Assembly: GCA_003166335.1 (NCBI GenBank) | Contig: PMWA01000032.1 | Location: 1 to 23,282 of the forward strand | DNA length: 23,282 nucleotides | Source of the DNA: Methanobacterium sp. | Lineage (GTDB): Archaea; Methanobacteriota; Methanobacteria; Methanobacteriales; Methanobacteriaceae | Reading direction: 5' to 3' | Part shown: positions 3,001-23,282 of the stretch, one piece after another | Position numbering within the stretch: the first letter of the stretch is position 1 | How the letters are laid out: each line of letters starts with the position of its first letter | Position numbers: made by a program

Positions 3001-6000
3001 TGTAGAATCAAATGCTCTAATAGTGGATGTTTATGGTGGAATGGATCCGGGATGTATATATGAGAAGGCAAATGGCTGGTATAAACGAACATTAGGGGAA
3101 CGAAAAGATTCTATAGTTTATATTTTCAGCCACAGTACGATGCCACTGATAACTAATAGATTATGGTTGGCACGGGATAAAACAGATAATTATGACAAAG
3201 AATGGTTTACAGGTATAGCCCACCCAGATGAATACTTAGAAAGTAATGATGTGGGTTATATTGAACATGTAACAATACCTGCTGATTTAGCTGCTATTGT
3301 TGAATTTATTGCTGAACAGGCTGCTTTGGTGCCAATTTCATTAGATGAAACCCAAGTTCAAGAGGGAATAGGTCGAGTAAACACGTTTTATAATAAATAT
3401 AATAGGATTCCAAAAACGATAAGTTTCCCGAATGAAGTTTTATCATTTACTGATTTTACTAGATTAATTGACTATTATGGTTTGAATTACAATTTCCTAC
3501 AATACGGTATGACCAGTGTAATAACCGAACCAGCTACCGGGGTATAAGGAATGACTGTAATCAACTGTTTAATTTATAACGGTAGCCATGCAGCTCAAGA
3601 TGATGTTCAAGGTACCATAAACGCTTTGAATACGCCAGATTTTAAAGTCAATTTATCGGGAACTATAGATGCAAAATCATTAACAAGTGATATAAATGTT
3701 TTATTGATACCTGGTGGGGATGGAGGATTAACATATTTACAATGTGGTGATTTTAATGAAAAGGATATCCAGGATTTCATATATAATGGTGGAGCAGGAT
3801 ATTTTGTTTGCGCTGCCAGTTATGTTGCCGCTAAACAAGCGGTAGGGGTTAAAAATTATGTAGGTTGGGGTGTTGCACCTACTGTAATAGCCAACGGATT
3901 AACCGACAATGAACCCAACGGACTGCTCATTAAGGTTTTAAATATATTAGGAATCAGTGGATTATTCACTATAAATCATTTCCAGGGACCGTTCTTTACA
4001 GATCCAACCAATACTATGACCGTTTTCGCGACTTTTGCAGATAACCAAACAGGACATGAAGGAGCAGCTGCTATTGTTGGAGAAAAATATGGTAAAGGAT
4101 ATTCTGTTTTAAGTAGTGTTCACCCTGAAAATAAAGAATCAACTTATACTTTAGTTCAGAATTTAGTTAAACTAGCTAATAATGGAGGTAATAGTGTGAC
4201 AAGTTTTGTAATACAAGATTTAGAGGATGCTGGAAGTAGGGTAAAAAGTTGGATTGAAACTAATAAAAAGTTACCTGCTTATGTGGCAATTAAGGGATTA
4301 AATGTTCTAATGCCTGATTATTTGTATTTAATGACTGGTTTACTCGTTACAGGAACTACAATAAATACAATGGCAGTTAAAACTCCGATAGCAACAACTG
4401 AAAACTTCAAGGCTGGAACTCTAACCAAAGCAGATTATGAAAACATGGCTTTGAGAATTAAAAATTATATCGAAAAATATGGACAAGCACCCGCCTATGC
4501 ATCAACATCATTAGGTAATATGCCATTTGAAGATTTGATTTATAATTTCAGTCGAATATGGGCTGTTGCAATACCAGCATCTATAAGCTGTACTCCTTTA
4601 TCTGCTCCAATTATTTCAGCAGGATATTGGGAGCAATTAGAAAAAGGAACCGGAAAAACATTTAACAATTTAACAGCCCTTACACTTGCAGTGGAAAAAT
4701 ACTGTACATACAATGGTTATTTCAATAATCAAAAAACATTCCCTCAAGAGCTACAATCATTAGAAGATGATATGAATGGAAAGGATAATGGAATAGTTGA
4801 TGAGGATAACTGTGTAGACTTTGCGGAATGTTGTACAAAACTTGCCCGTGAAAAAGGTTATGGTGCTACCTTATATGGTGTTTATTGTCCTGTAGAACAG
4901 ATAAACCATGCAGTAGTGCATGTAACTGGTGGAGAGTTTGTTAATAATACATGTGTGATTAATGGACAAACTTTATCAGGTATTATTATAGACTGGGCTA
5001 AATTAGCTAGTGATGGAGGAGCTATTGGAACATTTTGGTGTGATATTAACCAGGCAACTGAAAATCCGTCATGGCTTCCCTATGAATAAAATTTTACTTT
5101 TTTTGGAGGTTATGAAATTTATGAAATCACATCCAAGTGTAAAACATCCATATAAAAAAACTAAAAAGTTCTATAATTAGTTTTTATTTCTTTAAACATT
5201 GGATTATTTTTTGTCAATCTTTTGTAATGGTAAGATTGTCTATGTTGATATTTGTGTTATTTCCGATTTCAGAATAATAGATATTGTATCCATCCGAAAA
5301 TGTTATTGTTTCTACATTGATTTGAGATTGCAACTCCTGTAAATAATTGAAATTATCGGTTGCGCCAAAATTAGAATTATCAGTTACCATCCATATTATA
5401 TATTTTGTTGATGAATTTAGAATAATTTGATTATTCTGAGGATTAATATCGGTGCTTTTATGATTTTTATAATATATAATAGATTGATTTGTTTTTCCAG
5501 ATACGTTGTATCGGAGGTTAGTTAAAGATTCATAATTAGTGTAATAGTACATATATTTTCTCCAATCATCTTCATTTGTGAAAAAAATCAATGTATCGTT
5601 TGGATTAAAGTCGTTTAATGATTCGATAAAATATTGTGTAGTTAAATCTTTTGATTGTATATTCCCATAATCGATTCCTTTAGGATTAGGTGAAAGTGAA
5701 GTAAATTGTGTGATACTAAAAAATACACATAAAACAAGTAATAATATTATTAAATAATTTGAAGGGATCCCTTTAATTTTTTTATTCAAATTTGAAGAAA
5801 AATTAACAATTACATAACTAATTACCAGGACAAAGACTGGTACATAAATTAAAGTATAACCAGGTTTTGGTATATAGATTAAGAAATAAAAAAGGAAGGA
5901 AGGAAATATCCATAATATTAAAAAGATTGCCTTGCTATTTCTGAGGATAGATAAAGTGAATTTATTAAAATTTAAGGCAATGTAAATTGATAAAATAAAA

Positions 6001-21000: not shown

Positions 21001-23282
21001 TAAATTTTATATAATCATCATTCCTTAATTCATCTATAGCTTTATTAAGTTCAGCATATCCTTTAGAACTTAATAAAACTACAATTTTGGTCTTTTTTGA
21101 CCAAAATAAATTCCCACGTTCTTCTAAATTTCTTTGGTATTCTGAGTTATTACATATTTTTAATAAAGAAATTTTAACTTTTTCTAAGTCTGCTCCAGGG
21201 ACTGTCAATAGCCAGCCACAGTTTTTTAAATAATTAACTGTTTCATTAATTTCGTTCAAAGCGTCAGTAGATACATCTTTTATCAGAAATTTGCCTGTAA
21301 TCACCTTTTTTGAAGAATCATGACCCAATATGAATTTTAAGTTATTCAATTCTTTTTTTATCAATTCTAATTCTATTTTATCATCATAAACTGCTTTTAT
21401 TTCAATAATACCAGTATATTTCCGTTTTTTTGGAATTTTATAATCTACTGAAATAATTTCTTTTTCTACCATTCTTACACCCAATTAACTAAATTTAGAT
21501 CAAAAAACCTTTATGTATTAAAGTAAACATTTGGAATTTTTCTAAAATGTTGGATATTGTAATATAATAGTGAATTTAGTAATAAATTTTATAATTCCTG
21601 TATTATAAAATTAGGCTAAAATCGCAATCTTTTCAGGTTGGTTGCATTTAACAAATAAAAAAAAACATTAATTTTTAATTTAAATTAGTCTTAAATATAA
21701 TGTTTCGCGGTGCTTTTTAGCTTTTCTGAGTGTTTATAAATGTCATTAAGATTATCTATGGTTACTTTTTCCTCTATTTTAGCACCACTTGCGCGTTTCT
21801 CTTGATTATCGAAGAATCCTACAGATTTTAGTTTTCGTGATTTAAAATGCATTCTACATAAAACTTTGTATTTATTATCATCAAGGAGAACACTACAATA
21901 ATTATGCCTGTTACGAATGAATACTCTCGCCGGGTCAATTAATTCACTGAGGATAGCTTTGGCAATATAATATCCTTCCCATTCTTCTTCAGTCGTGATG
22001 ATTTCACTTTTATCTCTTTTAAAATCAATGTCTTCTGTAGTTTTTTCTTCAGCGTTTTCGGAAGCTAATGCTTTTTCTAATCTCTCATCGACTCTATCCT
22101 TAATGAATTCATTTAATGCCGACTTGGTGATTTGAGCAAATTGAGTCTTGGCATTCTTAGTTAATGGACTAGAATATACTTTTTTAGCAAAAAATCTTAC
22201 AAAATCATCTGATGGATCTTTAAGTTGTTCTGCTAATATTTTTTTCATTTCATTTTTGTATTTTAACTCGCTAGCGGATGCTAAAATGTTTTCCAGGTCA
22301 AATGATGATTTTGTAAACTGTTTAAGCTCTTTTTTATCCGTATCTGTAACATTTCTTAAATCAATCTCAAAGAATGGTTTTTGGTCCATTTTGTTTGGTT
22401 CATCAATATCTGTATAAAATCTAAAAATAATTCCATTAGTTAAAATTCCAAACTTTGCTTCAGTAACAGAAAAATATCTATATAGTTGAGATGCATGTTC
22501 TTTATCCAGGTCGGTTTTTGTTGTCTTACATTCAATCAGTATGATGGGTTTGCCCTCACTCATAATAGCATAATCTACTTTTTCCCCTTGTTTAATTCCA
22601 ACATCTGCAGTGAACTCAGGAACAACTTCTGCAGGGTCAGTATGGTCATATCCCAAAACAAGCCTTATAAAAGGAAGTATAAAAGCAGTTTTTGTAGCTT
22701 CTTCAGTTTTTACCAGGTCTGATTTTTCAGATATTTTAAATGTAAGTTTATCAATTTCTTCTGACATCCCCATTTCAACAATCCCCCATCAATTTTTTTA
22801 ATTGTCTAATTACAATTATTTACAAACCATATAATAAAATATTATTATATTTAAATCCAAATAATAATTAATCGTGGAGCTGCACTGAAACATTATTCAC
22901 ATCCCAAAACTTAAAAAGGGGATGATTAAGCCAGTCTAATAAATAAATACTTATGAAATTAAATTTTCTGCACACCTAATAAGTTGGGGGGAATGTAAAG
23001 AAATTTGGTTATGTTCGATGTTATAGCGTTAAGATATTTTTAGCTAAATCGATGATTAGAGCGTTTTAATTTATATAAACTCTAAATATGGCGTATTTTT
23101 AATATTTTTTTTATGAATTAGAGAATTTCTTTTTTTTTGAATTAATGAAGTTTTATAATTTTTTTTTATCTAGATAAAAAAAAAGAAAACTTCTTATTAC
23201 TATTTATTATTGAAAAATAAATAACTATTTTTTTTTTAACATAAAATTTGATTTATGGCTTTATTAATTTTATTTCGAAAAA

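Follow-up and report, generated by a model that had tools for sequence, protein, structure and literature searches.

Putative defence genes in the probable variable accessory arm of a tailed provirus from a peat methanogen

The window analyzed here, a whole contig of 23,282 nucleotides (C17) from a fragmented Methanobacterium assembly (G000, 126 contigs), raises the question of what the 18 kb behind the gene for a putative lysin represent. A first-pass annotation had read them as the cargo arm of an integrated virus, distinct from the host core DNA. We consider it likely that 5090-23282, together with C107:82134-80974, belongs to a temperate tailed virus (about 66-70 kb) as its variable accessory arm. 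In this scenario the host is a peat methanogen (order Methanobacteriales), a tyrosine integrase would insert the virus into the 3' end of a connectase gene, and the arm, a low-GC mosaic of cassettes that would have been acquired independently, would lie between the late and lysis genes and the distal att site.

That 5090-23282 lies inside an att-bounded insertion and is not core sequence is well supported by empty sites, by the overlap with C107 and by the enclosed arm of the closest relative, G017 (G058 in the earlier annotation); the assignment of C17 to the lysin-distal portion of a tailed provirus (about 66-70 kb) holds. The insertion site is the 3' end of the connectase gene, with a 20-bp att core found inside this 3' end (C107:80954-80973) and again 59 bp from the integrase gene (C16:25846-25865; integrase at C16:24654-25787). 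Of 18 same-genus genomes, 15 have both flanks on one contig at a distance of at most 300 bp; in seven of these 15 the distance is 0-55 bp and the alignment stops at the att core, and three aligned empty sites are nucleotide-exact at the core. Terminase, portal, head protease, a 1420-aa tape measure and the integrase are present as virus hallmark genes. C17 is physically joined at its right end alone, where 23161-23282 matches C107:82134-82015 in reverse complement, 1.2 kb from attL; this 122-bp overlap had been noted before and here shows 98.4% identity, the sole differences being two homopolymer-length indels. Among the 85 contig-end matches in G000 that reach another contig's end, the commonest length is 150-151 bp. 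The left end of C17 and the links to C16, C36 and C84 are placed by synteny with G017, these four contigs being colinear with the G017 provirus at C1:1789107-1857281.

The window opens with the end of the virus late operon, comprising tail-fibre-like genes (3-1589, plus strand; a 94-aa fragment open at its 5' end and a 422-aa protein) with 63% amino acid identity to G017:C1:1830784-1832043, within the G017 provirus, and with homologues in two proviruses of G016. A 98-aa ORF on the minus strand (1666-1962) is kept in related proviruses, with paralogs of 90-93% identity on C61 and C18 and homologues of 72-74% at the same position in the G016 proviruses. These are followed on the plus strand (2831-5089) by a 238-aa protein with a weak PMBR match and by the 512-aa "lysin" (3551-5089; Pfam PMBR 2.3e-13, BPL_N 1.5e-11), which has 90% amino acid identity to G017:1834568-1836106. 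Since no peptidase domain was recognized in it, it is the position of this PMBR and BPL_N protein that suggests a lytic activity.

In G017 the provirus lies in a different place from that of G000: it splits an hsdR gene, whose halves flank it together with an 18-bp repeat. Its lysin is followed by homologues of the 71-aa ORF, the HSDR_N endonuclease, the PolB-cassette ORFs and the MmeI enzyme described below. Since related proviruses integrated in two different places thus have partly shared arms, the arm appears to travel with the element. The identical gene order previously ascribed to G017 was not recovered, HSDR_N there preceding the PolB cassette, and neither was a G017 homologue of the 322-aa gene at 9208-10176: no protein homologue was found in that arm, where the non-coding stretch 9007-9164 alone matches. 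Given this differing order, and identities of 53-57% for the HSDR_N and MmeI-type homologues as opposed to 90% for the lysin, the two arms are not simply co-inherited. Both G016 proviruses carry the PolB cassette behind the tail-fibre genes, one of them also with fragments of the 537-aa gene, and one G016 arm has an integrase fragment directly ahead of the cassette. This fragment, and the occurrence of the PolB/pentapeptide module as an indel, suggest that some arm segments may be mobile elements in their own right, nested in the provirus. A foreign character of the arm is indicated by its low GC content (given below) and by the PD-T4-7, Panacea pair, 322-aa and 537-aa genes, for which none of 18 genomes of the genus gave a DNA match. 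The arm is also polymorphic in nature, one metagenome contig lacking the module and another restoring one frameshift (see below); contigs from RNA runs over the arm are no proof of transcription.

The gene families listed for the arm in the first-pass annotation were all found in place with Pfam and PADLOC. Nearest to the lysin is a PMT_2-type glycosyltransferase (539 aa; 5214-6833, minus strand; Pfam PMT_2 6.7e-11), a candidate surface-glycan modifier whose best homologues in the genus reach 57-58% amino acid identity. No such gene stands at the corresponding place in G017, and the 56%-identical copies with fetched surroundings adjoin homologues of genes on C61, C7 or C74 of G000, with no provirus genes in those surroundings. 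Where G000 has PMT_2, G017 has a flippase/GT2/methyltransferase set. The 71-aa ORF (7125-7340, plus strand) belongs to a stretch (6985-7330) common to the G017 arm, at 79.8% nucleotide and 84-85% amino acid identity to G017:1836278-1836629, directly behind the G017 lysin. Block 7331-9006 is missing from the G017 arm; here lie a CDF cation-efflux transporter (294 aa; 7337-8221, plus strand; Pfam Cation_efflux 1.8e-42), which matches phrog_7308 of the category "moron" (2.6e-39) and has best genus homologues of just 51-53% amino acid identity, and an HNH_3 and AP2 homing-type endonuclease (211 aa; 8202-8837, minus strand; Pfam) with a 43% paralog in the replication module (C16:20526-21242). The 322-aa protein (minus strand) belongs to a viral family of unknown function (phrog_37995, 5e-58) and gave no tblastn match in phage records. 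Two further minus-strand ORFs belong to no family, one of 177 aa (10570-11103), for which family searches including Pfam gave nothing significant, and one of 107 aa (12203-12526). The 537-aa protein (19871-21484, minus strand) represents an uncharacterized family (931 cluster representatives at E<=1e-3) with an invariant, HEPN-like Rx4H motif, residues E439, R482 and H487 being invariant across 48 sequences; its Atlas lead is HEPN_Apea (0.89), while no HEPN model matched and sequence searches of Pfam, PADLOC and PDB gave nothing informative.

A more detailed picture emerges for the Panacea-domain antitoxin (171 aa; 11262-11777, plus strand; Pfam SocA_Panacea 1.4e-20), whose gene overlaps by 20 nt with that of a 124-aa protein (11758-12132, plus strand). 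The latter had been labeled an ORFan, a label that falls with the 12 homologues found (49-100% identity), two of them named RelE by their source. A profile match to HigB-2 (E 0.0023), an Atlas structure TM of 0.72-0.73 to RelE/ParE clusters, and listed PDB fold matches that are, with few exceptions, RelE/HigB/YoeB/YafQ/ParE-type toxins or toxin-antitoxin complexes (best E 0.02) are each weak but consistent, and make it a RelE/HigB-like toxin candidate. Modeling supports binding between the two proteins, the predicted complex scoring 0.81 compared to 0.00 for the best of three controls; of 157 solved complexes 116 attain the mark for binding, as do 2 of 215 mismatched pairs. Contact agreement between runs is at least 89%, partner pLDDT is at least 84, and the predicted interface on the antitoxin side comprises the C-terminal residues 140-168.

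The PD-T4-7 homologue (301 aa; 12790-13695, minus strand; PADLOC PDLC04065, 1.3e-57) covers positions 1-312 of the 333 in the profile. It belongs to a small set of 17 proteins at E<=1e-5 in a large protein collection, its own record included, and both relatives among species-representative genomes are from bacterial MAGs (31-32%). The MmeI-type IIG restriction-methylase occupies three minus-strand ORFs of 651, 244 and 109 aa (17824-19779, 17027-17761 and 16563-16892; PADLOC up to 7.1e-85) with the Pfam domains MmeI_N, MmeI_hel, MmeI_Mtase, Eco57I and TaqI_C and, in ORF1, the motifs DPACGSG and NPPY; it is 57% identical to an intact 1106-aa enzyme in G017. Two frameshifts interrupt the gene, one near 17843 and one within 17027-17066, with other frames open upstream, and both are real in the DNA, contigs of three DNA runs matching gap-free. 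As they cut off the nuclease-methylase portion from that for target recognition, the enzyme is most likely dead in the G000 strain. In one contig of RNA run X15 a single extra letter follows 17842; by our reading it would restore the frame between ORF1 and ORF2. The HSDR_N/PD-(D/E)XK endonuclease (360 aa; 21691-22773, minus strand; Pfam HSDR_N 1.9e-15) belongs to a temperate-phage family (phrog_4225, 2e-115); among the 15 phage records listed, 12 of them named bacterial phages, identity is 39-47% over 84-100% of the query, and it is 53% to G017:1842867-1843946.

Between PD-T4-7 and IIG lies a module of 2,870 bp (13573-16442), which combines a PolB-cassette remnant with a pentapeptide-repeat gene. 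The remnant consists of the first two small ORFs of the multi-copy cassette (116 and 125 aa; 13990-14891, plus strand), with the polymerase missing; they are 71-89% identical to copies on C34, C124 and C33 (amino acids) and 83% and 66% to G017:1845041-1845986, there followed by a 797-aa PolB, and their read depth is 5-8 times that of the flanks. The pentapeptide-repeat protein (437 aa; 15096-16409, minus strand; Pfam Pentapeptide_3, 5.4e-22) has a 27% paralog adjoining another PolB-cassette copy, on C34. Two direct repeats, 81% identical over 234 bp and spaced 2870 apart, contain an IIG 3'-end remnant and the PD-T4-7 start (13550-13780) and the true IIG 3' end with a decayed PD-T4-7 start (16419-16645), respectively. 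A metagenome contig of run X9, with 255 letters on its shorter side, joins 13572 to 16443 and so represents a natural variant that has lost the module. In this variant PD-T4-7 stands directly downstream of the IIG gene.

Two alternatives concern the placement of the arm. C17 could be misplaced, the 122-bp overlap being a dispersed AT-rich repeat or the contig a binning error, in which case the arm would be located elsewhere, perhaps in a different organism from the metagenome. The assembly indeed looks metagenome-derived, the stretch occurs in peat and permafrost runs, the overlap contains two indels, and depth rises at 22643-23282 with several loose ends and indel variants. As the overlap region is AT-rich and shows indel variants (microdiversity at 23105-23213) and some loose ends in metagenome contigs, there is residual room for a repeat-mediated misjoin. 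We nevertheless regard misplacement as very improbable: the overlap sequence is common to these two contig ends alone within G000, a comparable overlap joins C16 and C26 (124 bp, 98.4%), C17:1-5112 is colinear with the G017 provirus, whose arm has homologues of four C17 arm genes, and arm depth is even with that of the lysin region in three DNA runs (10-16, 10-13, 5-8). It is also conceivable, if unlikely, that the arm is made up of one or several mobile or island segments of separate standing that inserted into, or built up beside, a resident, possibly defective provirus, unpackaged and merely enclosed with it by the att repeats. GC content is lower in the arm (0.284) than in the virus core (0.339; genome 0.324), the arm holds no virion gene, and the PolB cassette is multi-copy in G000 and its relatives; the G016 integrase fragment, the presence or absence of the module among natural variants, and PMT_2, CDF and HNH-AP2 as insertions relative to G017 point the same way. 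Against this, Pfam detected no integrase within the arm of G000 and a repeat search no internal copy of the att core, proviruses at two unrelated sites each enclose a shared-gene arm in one repeat pair, the two elements are similar in size (68.2 kb in G017; at least 66.3 kb as the sum over contigs in G000), and the element would still carry any insertions nested in its arm.

Under the preferred reading of an accessory arm, the virus may package the arm and so deliver it to its host, as the first-pass annotation had it, to judge from arm genes common to two proviruses in different places. If expressed in the lysogen, PD-T4-7, the Rx4H protein, HSDR_N and an intact IIG may exclude other viruses or mobile DNA from the cell with its resident virus, the Panacea antitoxin and RelE/HigB-like toxin could serve stabilization or abortive infection, and PMT_2 and CDF could alter the cell surface and mediate metal efflux. 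The arm genes might instead mainly serve the virus itself in counter-defence, recombination and host takeover, with Panacea acting against host toxins, the endonucleases in viral DNA metabolism and IIG methylating viral DNA. We consider this rather unlikely as the main role, and the two readings are compatible. A role in the service of the virus is in line with the filing of phrog_4225 under DNA, RNA and nucleotide metabolism, with an HSDR_N match far from either record end in several of the listed phage records, with the stand-alone antitoxins and methyltransferases described for the virus MSTV1 as possible counter-defence (PMC11375127), and with anti-defence genes reported in 7.3% of archaeal proviruses (bioRxiv 10.1101/2025.11.27.691053). 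On the other hand, the Panacea gene overlaps its own putative toxin gene, with model-supported binding, in the manner of a self-contained pair, the PADLOC match of PD-T4-7 is to a defence-gene model, and 10 of the 16 arm genes are opposite in strand to the late operon. The "bacterial-type" character ascribed to the arm stands in part: it fits PD-T4-7, HSDR_N and the Atlas neighbors of the toxin and Rx4H protein, whereas the PMT_2 and CDF families have chromosomal homologues in the genus (52-58% amino acid identity), which makes the arm a mosaic, and a defence island only putatively, with IIG broken in the G000 strain.

Cargo of this defence type is well known in bacterial prophages and has already been noted in the methanogen viruses MSTV1 and phi-mru. 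Morons and hotspots of bacterial prophages hold variable cassettes at a fixed place near one end, including genes for restriction-modification, abortive infection and toxin-antitoxin pairs, with many opposite in strand to the late operon; defence hotspots of bacterial temperate phages were reportedly described by Rousset et al. in 2022. The G000 arm has the same layout, but in an archaeal host and virus. PD-T4-7 (PDLC04065 and PDLC04066 in PADLOC-DB) is said to have been discovered by Vassallo et al. in 2022 in an E. coli screen, and the G000 copy, a full-length match, lies on an archaeal provirus. Pairs with a Panacea antitoxin (PanA; Pfam PF13274) were reportedly described by Kurata et al. 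in 2022; as in these, the G000 Panacea gene lies immediately upstream of, and overlaps, a small toxin-like gene, the difference being that its predicted partner is RelE/HigB-like.

MSTV1, a virus of Methanobrevibacter smithii, is described as having a hypervariable defence/counter-defence locus (PMC11375127). Like the G000 element, it is a temperate tailed Methanobacteriales virus whose variable locus includes toxin-antitoxin genes, and its relatives, like the proviruses of G000 and G017, occupy different integration sites; the locus has stand-alone antitoxins and, in relatives, DNA methyltransferases, and the host is from the gut instead of peat and the toxin HEPN-type (PMC11375127). The comparison is one of gene content, and by the published description the combination of PD-T4-7, MmeI-type IIG, Panacea with a RelE-like toxin, Rx4H protein and HSDR_N sets G000 apart. 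The prophage phi-mru of Methanobrevibacter ruminantium M1 (about 62 kb) is described in terms of integration, replication, packaging, capsid, lysis and "lysogenic" modules (PMC2812497), with a "dnd system-associated protein 2" (mru_0323) between the lytic enzyme PeiR (mru_0320) and the prophage end (mru_0325) (PMC5816558). In contrast to PeiR, the G000 "lysin" is without a recognized peptidase domain, and, compared by description, about five genes stand behind the lysin in phi-mru vs. about 16 genes over 19 kb in G000.

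The first-pass annotation held that the 18.2 kb behind the lysin carry a set of defence-type genes inside an att-bounded insertion. As a whole this is right, and its placing of the arm (5090-23282) within a provirus is well supported by empty sites in relatives, by an overlap with contig C107 and by genes shared with the corresponding arm in G017, the closest relative with a sister provirus. The window is contig C17 in full, one of the 126 contigs of an assembly (2.49 Mb, GC 0.324). The 20-bp att core that had been proposed occurs in this assembly at two sites, as direct repeats: at C107:80954-80973, in the last codons of a connectase (MJ0548-type) gene, and at C16:25846-25865, where a tyrosine integrase gene (Phage_integrase, 3.2e-11, and phrog_1) starts 59 bp away. 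Both outer flanks were searched in 30 other genomes, 18 of them from the same genus. The connectase flank and the C16 flank, the latter an MBL-fold gene followed by chorismate synthase, lie at most 300 bp apart on one contig in 15 of these 18. In seven genomes (G017, G005, G012, G002, G004, G006 and G016) the distance is 0-55 bp, the left alignment running up to the final base of the core and the right alignment beginning just behind it; among the remaining three of the genus, G001 and G013 have no usable flank match and the flanks in G011 are 3.2 kb apart. Aligned with the two junctions of the present genome, G000 (alignment A1), three empty sites are exact at the core, so that the whole stretch from C107:80974 to C16:25845 is an insertion. 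The connectase C-terminus is changed by the integration (L001:18820-18852 in the excised locus, equal to C107:80954-80986), with two residues after the core in empty sites versus five virus-derived ones in G000.

The right ends of C17 and C107 overlap in reverse complement over 122 bp at 98.4% identity, with only two differences, both in homopolymer length, and the overlapping sequence is absent from all other contigs of the genome. Contig-end matches that reach another contig's end number 85, the commonest length being 150-151 bp, and a similar end overlap of 124 bp links C16 and C26. Metagenome contigs carry indel variants at 23105-23213, which explains the assembly break at this end. A metagenome scan with the HSDR_N protein (21691-22773, minus strand) for a contig crossing from C17 to C107 gave 515 relatives, of which 80 were kept, none above 81% identity; in two of its loci (L008 and L009) HSDR_N lies beside PolB-cassette fragments, and L008 also holds an MmeI-like start. 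The left end of C17 is without a contig overlap and is placed by synteny only.

Contigs C16, C36 and C84 contain genes for the large subunit of a terminase, for a portal, for a head protease, for a tape measure protein of 1420 aa and for the integrase; a major capsid protein was not recognised among five ORFs of C36. Judged by this gene content, the element is to be read as an integrated temperate tailed virus, a Caudoviricetes-type provirus. Together with C17, these contigs are colinear with the 68.2-kb element of G017 (G017:C1:1789107-1857281), the G000 pieces summing to about 66.3 kb plus gaps. The G017 element (that of G058 in the earlier annotation) is bounded by the 18-bp repeat given for it before. 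That element interrupts hsdR, a gene of a type I restriction operon (G017:C1:1787394-1789085 / 1857251-1858309; L004:2394-4085, L007:12251-13309), with HsdM, HsdS and the C-terminal half of HsdR (Helicase_C and EcoEI_R_C) on its left and the N-terminal half (ResIII) on its right. The connectase site is empty in G017, so that the two proviruses sit at different places. The G017 provirus would inactivate the hsdR of its host while bringing an intact MmeI-type enzyme of its own.

On the plus strand, the first 5.1 kb of the window encode tail-fibre-like proteins and then the 512-aa PMBR and BPL_N protein that had been called the lysin (3551-5089). Since this protein, made of PMBR repeats and a BPL_N-like domain, has no recognised peptidase domain, its lytic role is assumed from position only; among 251 genomes of the order, 81 encode paralogues of it (32-40% identity over residues 4-340), in many cases more than one, and an IMG/VR scan with the lysin gave three pattern matches, none confirmed. 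The remaining 18.2 kb are lower in GC (0.26-0.31 in most 1-kb windows), with 10 of 16 arm genes on the minus strand, and contain the genes that had been listed for them: a PMT_2 glycosyltransferase, a CDF transporter, an endonuclease with HNH_3 and AP2 domains, a Panacea protein, PD-T4-7, a pentapeptide-repeat protein, three IIG fragments, HSDR_N and a PolB remnant. Scans for tRNA and Rfam families found none in the window, and the arm ORFs of no known family gave nothing meaningful with Pfam at E up to 10 or with NCBIfam. At the DNA level, matches in any of the 18 genus genomes are limited to PMT_2, the PolB-cassette ORFs, MmeI and HSDR_N, the CDF gene reaching only 66-67% identity.

In G017 the lysin shares 90% identity with the window's, and the arm behind it extends over 21 kb. 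This arm begins with a 63-aa ORF (84-85% to window 7125-7340), continues with a flippase-like protein, two methyltransferases and a GT2 glycosyltransferase, then HSDR_N (53% to the window's), a complete PolB cassette (PolB of 797 aa), one radical-SAM and one YaaC-like protein, an unbroken MmeI-type enzyme of 1106 aa (57% to the window's), and ends with a trypsin-like peptidase. The gene order, which had been claimed to be the same, therefore differs between the two arms, HSDR_N coming ahead of the other shared defence-type genes in G017 and last in G000; nor does the G017 arm encode a protein homologue of the 322-aa gene (9208-10176, minus strand; g00330), which had been reported there. Relative to G017, the window has additional segments at 5113-6984 (PMT_2) and 7331-9006 (CDF and HNH-AP2). 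In two related proviruses of G016 the tail-fibre genes are likewise followed by pieces resembling methyltransferases or flippases and by a PolB cassette; one of the two also has part of an integrase and pieces of a gene homologous to the 537-aa gene. In the G000, G017 and both G016 elements a cargo region thus lies at a fixed place after the tail-fibre or lysin genes, with differing gene sets. The best available argument that the arm would move with the virus is the occurrence of common arm genes in two separately bounded elements. A recent capture of PMT_2 and CDF from this host lineage was considered and rejected, because their best genus homologues (57-58% and 51-53% aa identity, respectively) are below the identity of the flanking core genes (75-87% aa or 79-91% nt). 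In G005, G002 and G012, the neighbours of the PMT_2 homologue correspond to genes on the G000 contigs C61, C7 or C74, and no provirus gene is near.

The IIG gene is distributed over three ORFs of 651, 244 and 109 aa (16563-19779, minus strand) which together show the domain order of the MmeI family (MmeI_N, MmeI_hel, MmeI_Mtase/Eco57I, TaqI_C; PADLOC up to 7.1e-85) and the motifs DPACGSG and NPPY. ORF1 combines the nuclease domain at the N-terminus with methyltransferase motifs I and IV, ORF2 has the TaqI_C-type recognition domain, and ORF3 the conserved C-terminus. Upstream, ORF2 and ORF3 stay open in their own frames as far as 17860 and 17066, respectively, from which two frame changes follow, and these domains are accordingly not in one polypeptide here, while the 1106-aa homologue of G017 is intact. 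A homopolymer assembly error as the cause of this split is ruled out by gapless contig matches from three DNA runs: X3 (16445-19764) and X5 (17138-22263), both flagged as possible sources of the C17 DNA, and X9 (17680-20557), which is not. One contig of an RNA-library run has one extra letter behind 17842 (window 17838-17850), which on our reading would fuse ORF1 and ORF2 in frame, so that an allele with an intact junction probably exists in the habitat; a strain allele is the simplest reading of this letter. Among the runs listed, the region 16500-19800 was found in 20 from 15 studies, all labelled as peat or permafrost metagenomes; six are flagged as possible sources, and eight DNA runs among the other 14 contain 85-96% of the sampled words. 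Two parts of the window, the region where the MmeI gene starts and a stretch upstream of the 537-aa gene, have short matches (47-92 bp, 89-94%) at C87:3328-3516; as they are not colinear, they were rejected as insertion marks at the flanks of the 537-aa gene, and may be shared promoter-like sequence.

The region is polymorphic at a 2,870-bp module. Each copy of a 234-bp direct repeat (81%; 13550-13780 and 16419-16645) consists of an IIG 3' end followed by the start of PD-T4-7, and an X9 contig joins 13572 to 16443, with the PolB remnant and the pentapeptide gene gone and PD-T4-7 directly downstream of the IIG gene. Contigs from the RNA run cover parts of the arm, a coverage that cannot show transcription. 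Of the multi-copy PolB cassette, which consists of three small ORFs (one zinc-ribbon-like) and a family-B DNA polymerase, the window has a stretch at 13914-14891 with the first two small ORFs. Further G000 copies lie at C124:734-4087, C93:53-2367, C34:1-1083, C33:2236-3169 and C113:1-326, and the ORFs match 13 of the 18 genus genomes at the DNA level, with several copies each. The polymerase is 586-589 aa long on C124 and C93 versus 797 aa in G017, and among the neighbours of the cassette are, on C93, an OLD-like TOPRIM protein and, on C34, another pentapeptide protein. In metagenome contigs the depth of the cassette is 5-8 times that of the flanks, and the RNA run has its highest depth here. 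A 157-aa integrase fragment directly precedes the cassette in a G016 provirus arm (L088:13571-14044, G016:C44); this hints that the cassette once came as part of an integrating element of its own.

The Panacea gene (11262-11777, plus strand; PF13274, 1.4e-20, 74.8 bits against a cut-off of 25.7) overlaps a 124-aa ORF (11758-12132, plus strand) which had been taken for an ORFan. This label is wrong, the ORF having 12 homologues at 49-100% identity, its own record included; for two of them a source gives the name RelE. A profile built from 10 sequences matches HigB-2 structures (E 0.0023), an Atlas model aligns to RelE/ParE clusters (TM 0.72-0.73), and a fold search of the PDB listed almost exclusively RelE/HigB/YoeB/YafQ/ParE-type toxins or toxin-antitoxin complexes, at a best E of only 0.02. 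The AlphaFold model searched was built from a 10-row alignment (pLDDT 71.9, versus an unusable 37.5 from the single sequence). Profile, Atlas structure and fold matches point to a RelE/HigB-like candidate toxin. A model of the complex of the two proteins scored 0.81, the best of three controls reaching 0.00, and the score mark applied is met by 116 of 157 solved complexes and by two of 215 mismatched pairs. The runs agree in at least 89% of contacts with a partner pLDDT of at least 84, and the predicted interface lies at antitoxin residues 140-168; the model supports binding of the 124-aa product by the Panacea protein.

PD-T4-7 matches its model PDLC04065 over nearly the full length (1.3e-57; residues 6-294 on profile positions 1-312 of 333). 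It has 17 relatives at E of 1e-5 or below in a large protein collection, its own record included, and only two in species-representative genomes queried with a five-row alignment, both bacterial MAGs. A general tie between PD-T4-7 and IIG enzymes was rejected, IIG being found at neither of these two distant bacterial loci. The HSDR_N protein matches phrog_4225 (2e-115), and among 15 phage records listed it shows 39-47% identity over 84-100% of its length, 12 of them being named phages of bacteria. The 537-aa protein (19871-21484, minus strand) was returned alone by a word-index search, and an exhaustive search found its family: 931 cluster representatives, mostly of 420-450 aa, aligned to residues 100-536. 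E439, R482 and H487 are invariant in 48 aligned members and form an Rx4H motif, within the HEPN Rx4-6H pattern. None of the 48 matches a HEPN Pfam model, PADLOC gave only four scattered single-member hits in the family, and there is no sequence match to any PDB entry; the only lead to HEPN comes from an Atlas cluster with HEPN_Apea in 15% of its members, to which the feature score is 0.89.

Defence cargo carried by proviruses is, as a principle, established for bacterial prophages. To our knowledge, few methanogen viruses are characterised, and what they give to their hosts is largely unknown. The same principle has previously been noted for MSTV1 and phi-mru. According to the MSTV1 report, the hypervariable region of this virus has a toxin-antitoxin system and antitoxins, with methyltransferases in relatives, and is interpreted as serving defence and counter-defence (PMC11375127), and the phi-mru accounts place a gene for a ‘dnd system-associated protein 2’ (mru_0323) between PeiR (mru_0320) and the prophage end (PMC2812497; PMC5816558). 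Defence systems of the hosts and anti-defence genes of the viruses are reported in two surveys on archaeal viruses and proviruses, the available passages of which describe no provirus-borne defence arms (PMC13465236; bioRxiv 10.1101/2025.11.27.691053), and in a rumen survey the number of proviruses correlates positively with that of defence systems in archaea (PMC11834463).

The arm exemplifies a known phenomenon, with well-defined bounds, an unusually large size and good documentation. That it would be delivered and work as a defence island is plausible; the IIG enzyme is broken in this strain. The case offers boundaries exact to the nucleotide, a sister element with which to compare it, natural variation across independent peat metagenomes (module present or absent, restriction gene broken versus repaired), and concrete candidate antiviral genes in archaea, namely PD-T4-7, the Panacea/RelE-like pair and the large uncharacterised Rx4H family. 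Such provirus arms would add to the accessory immune genes predicted for methanogens of a habitat that emits methane. We also put forward, as a rather improbable extension, that in this virus lineage of peat methanogens the lysin-distal arm is an actively recombining platform for the exchange of immune genes. Conserved junction sequences could then anchor the recombination by which cassettes enter and leave the arm, and the duplicated IIG 3' end and PD-T4-7 start around the 2,870-bp module could be one such anchor. The arm may bring systems known so far from bacteria into archaea, such as PD-T4-7 and the undescribed Rx4H family with its 931 cluster representatives, and the G017 element, disrupting hsdR and supplying its own IIG enzyme, may replace the immune repertoire of its host, not merely extend it.

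The 322-aa protein has no tblastn match in phage records. Between its gene and the 177-aa gene (10570-11103, minus strand) lies a stretch of about 170 bp (10373-10543). Similar sequence, with 75-80% identity, is present at several places in G005, G006, G002 and G004 and, for part of the stretch, on C37 of G000 (40840-40902); the stretch may be a small dispersed repeat.
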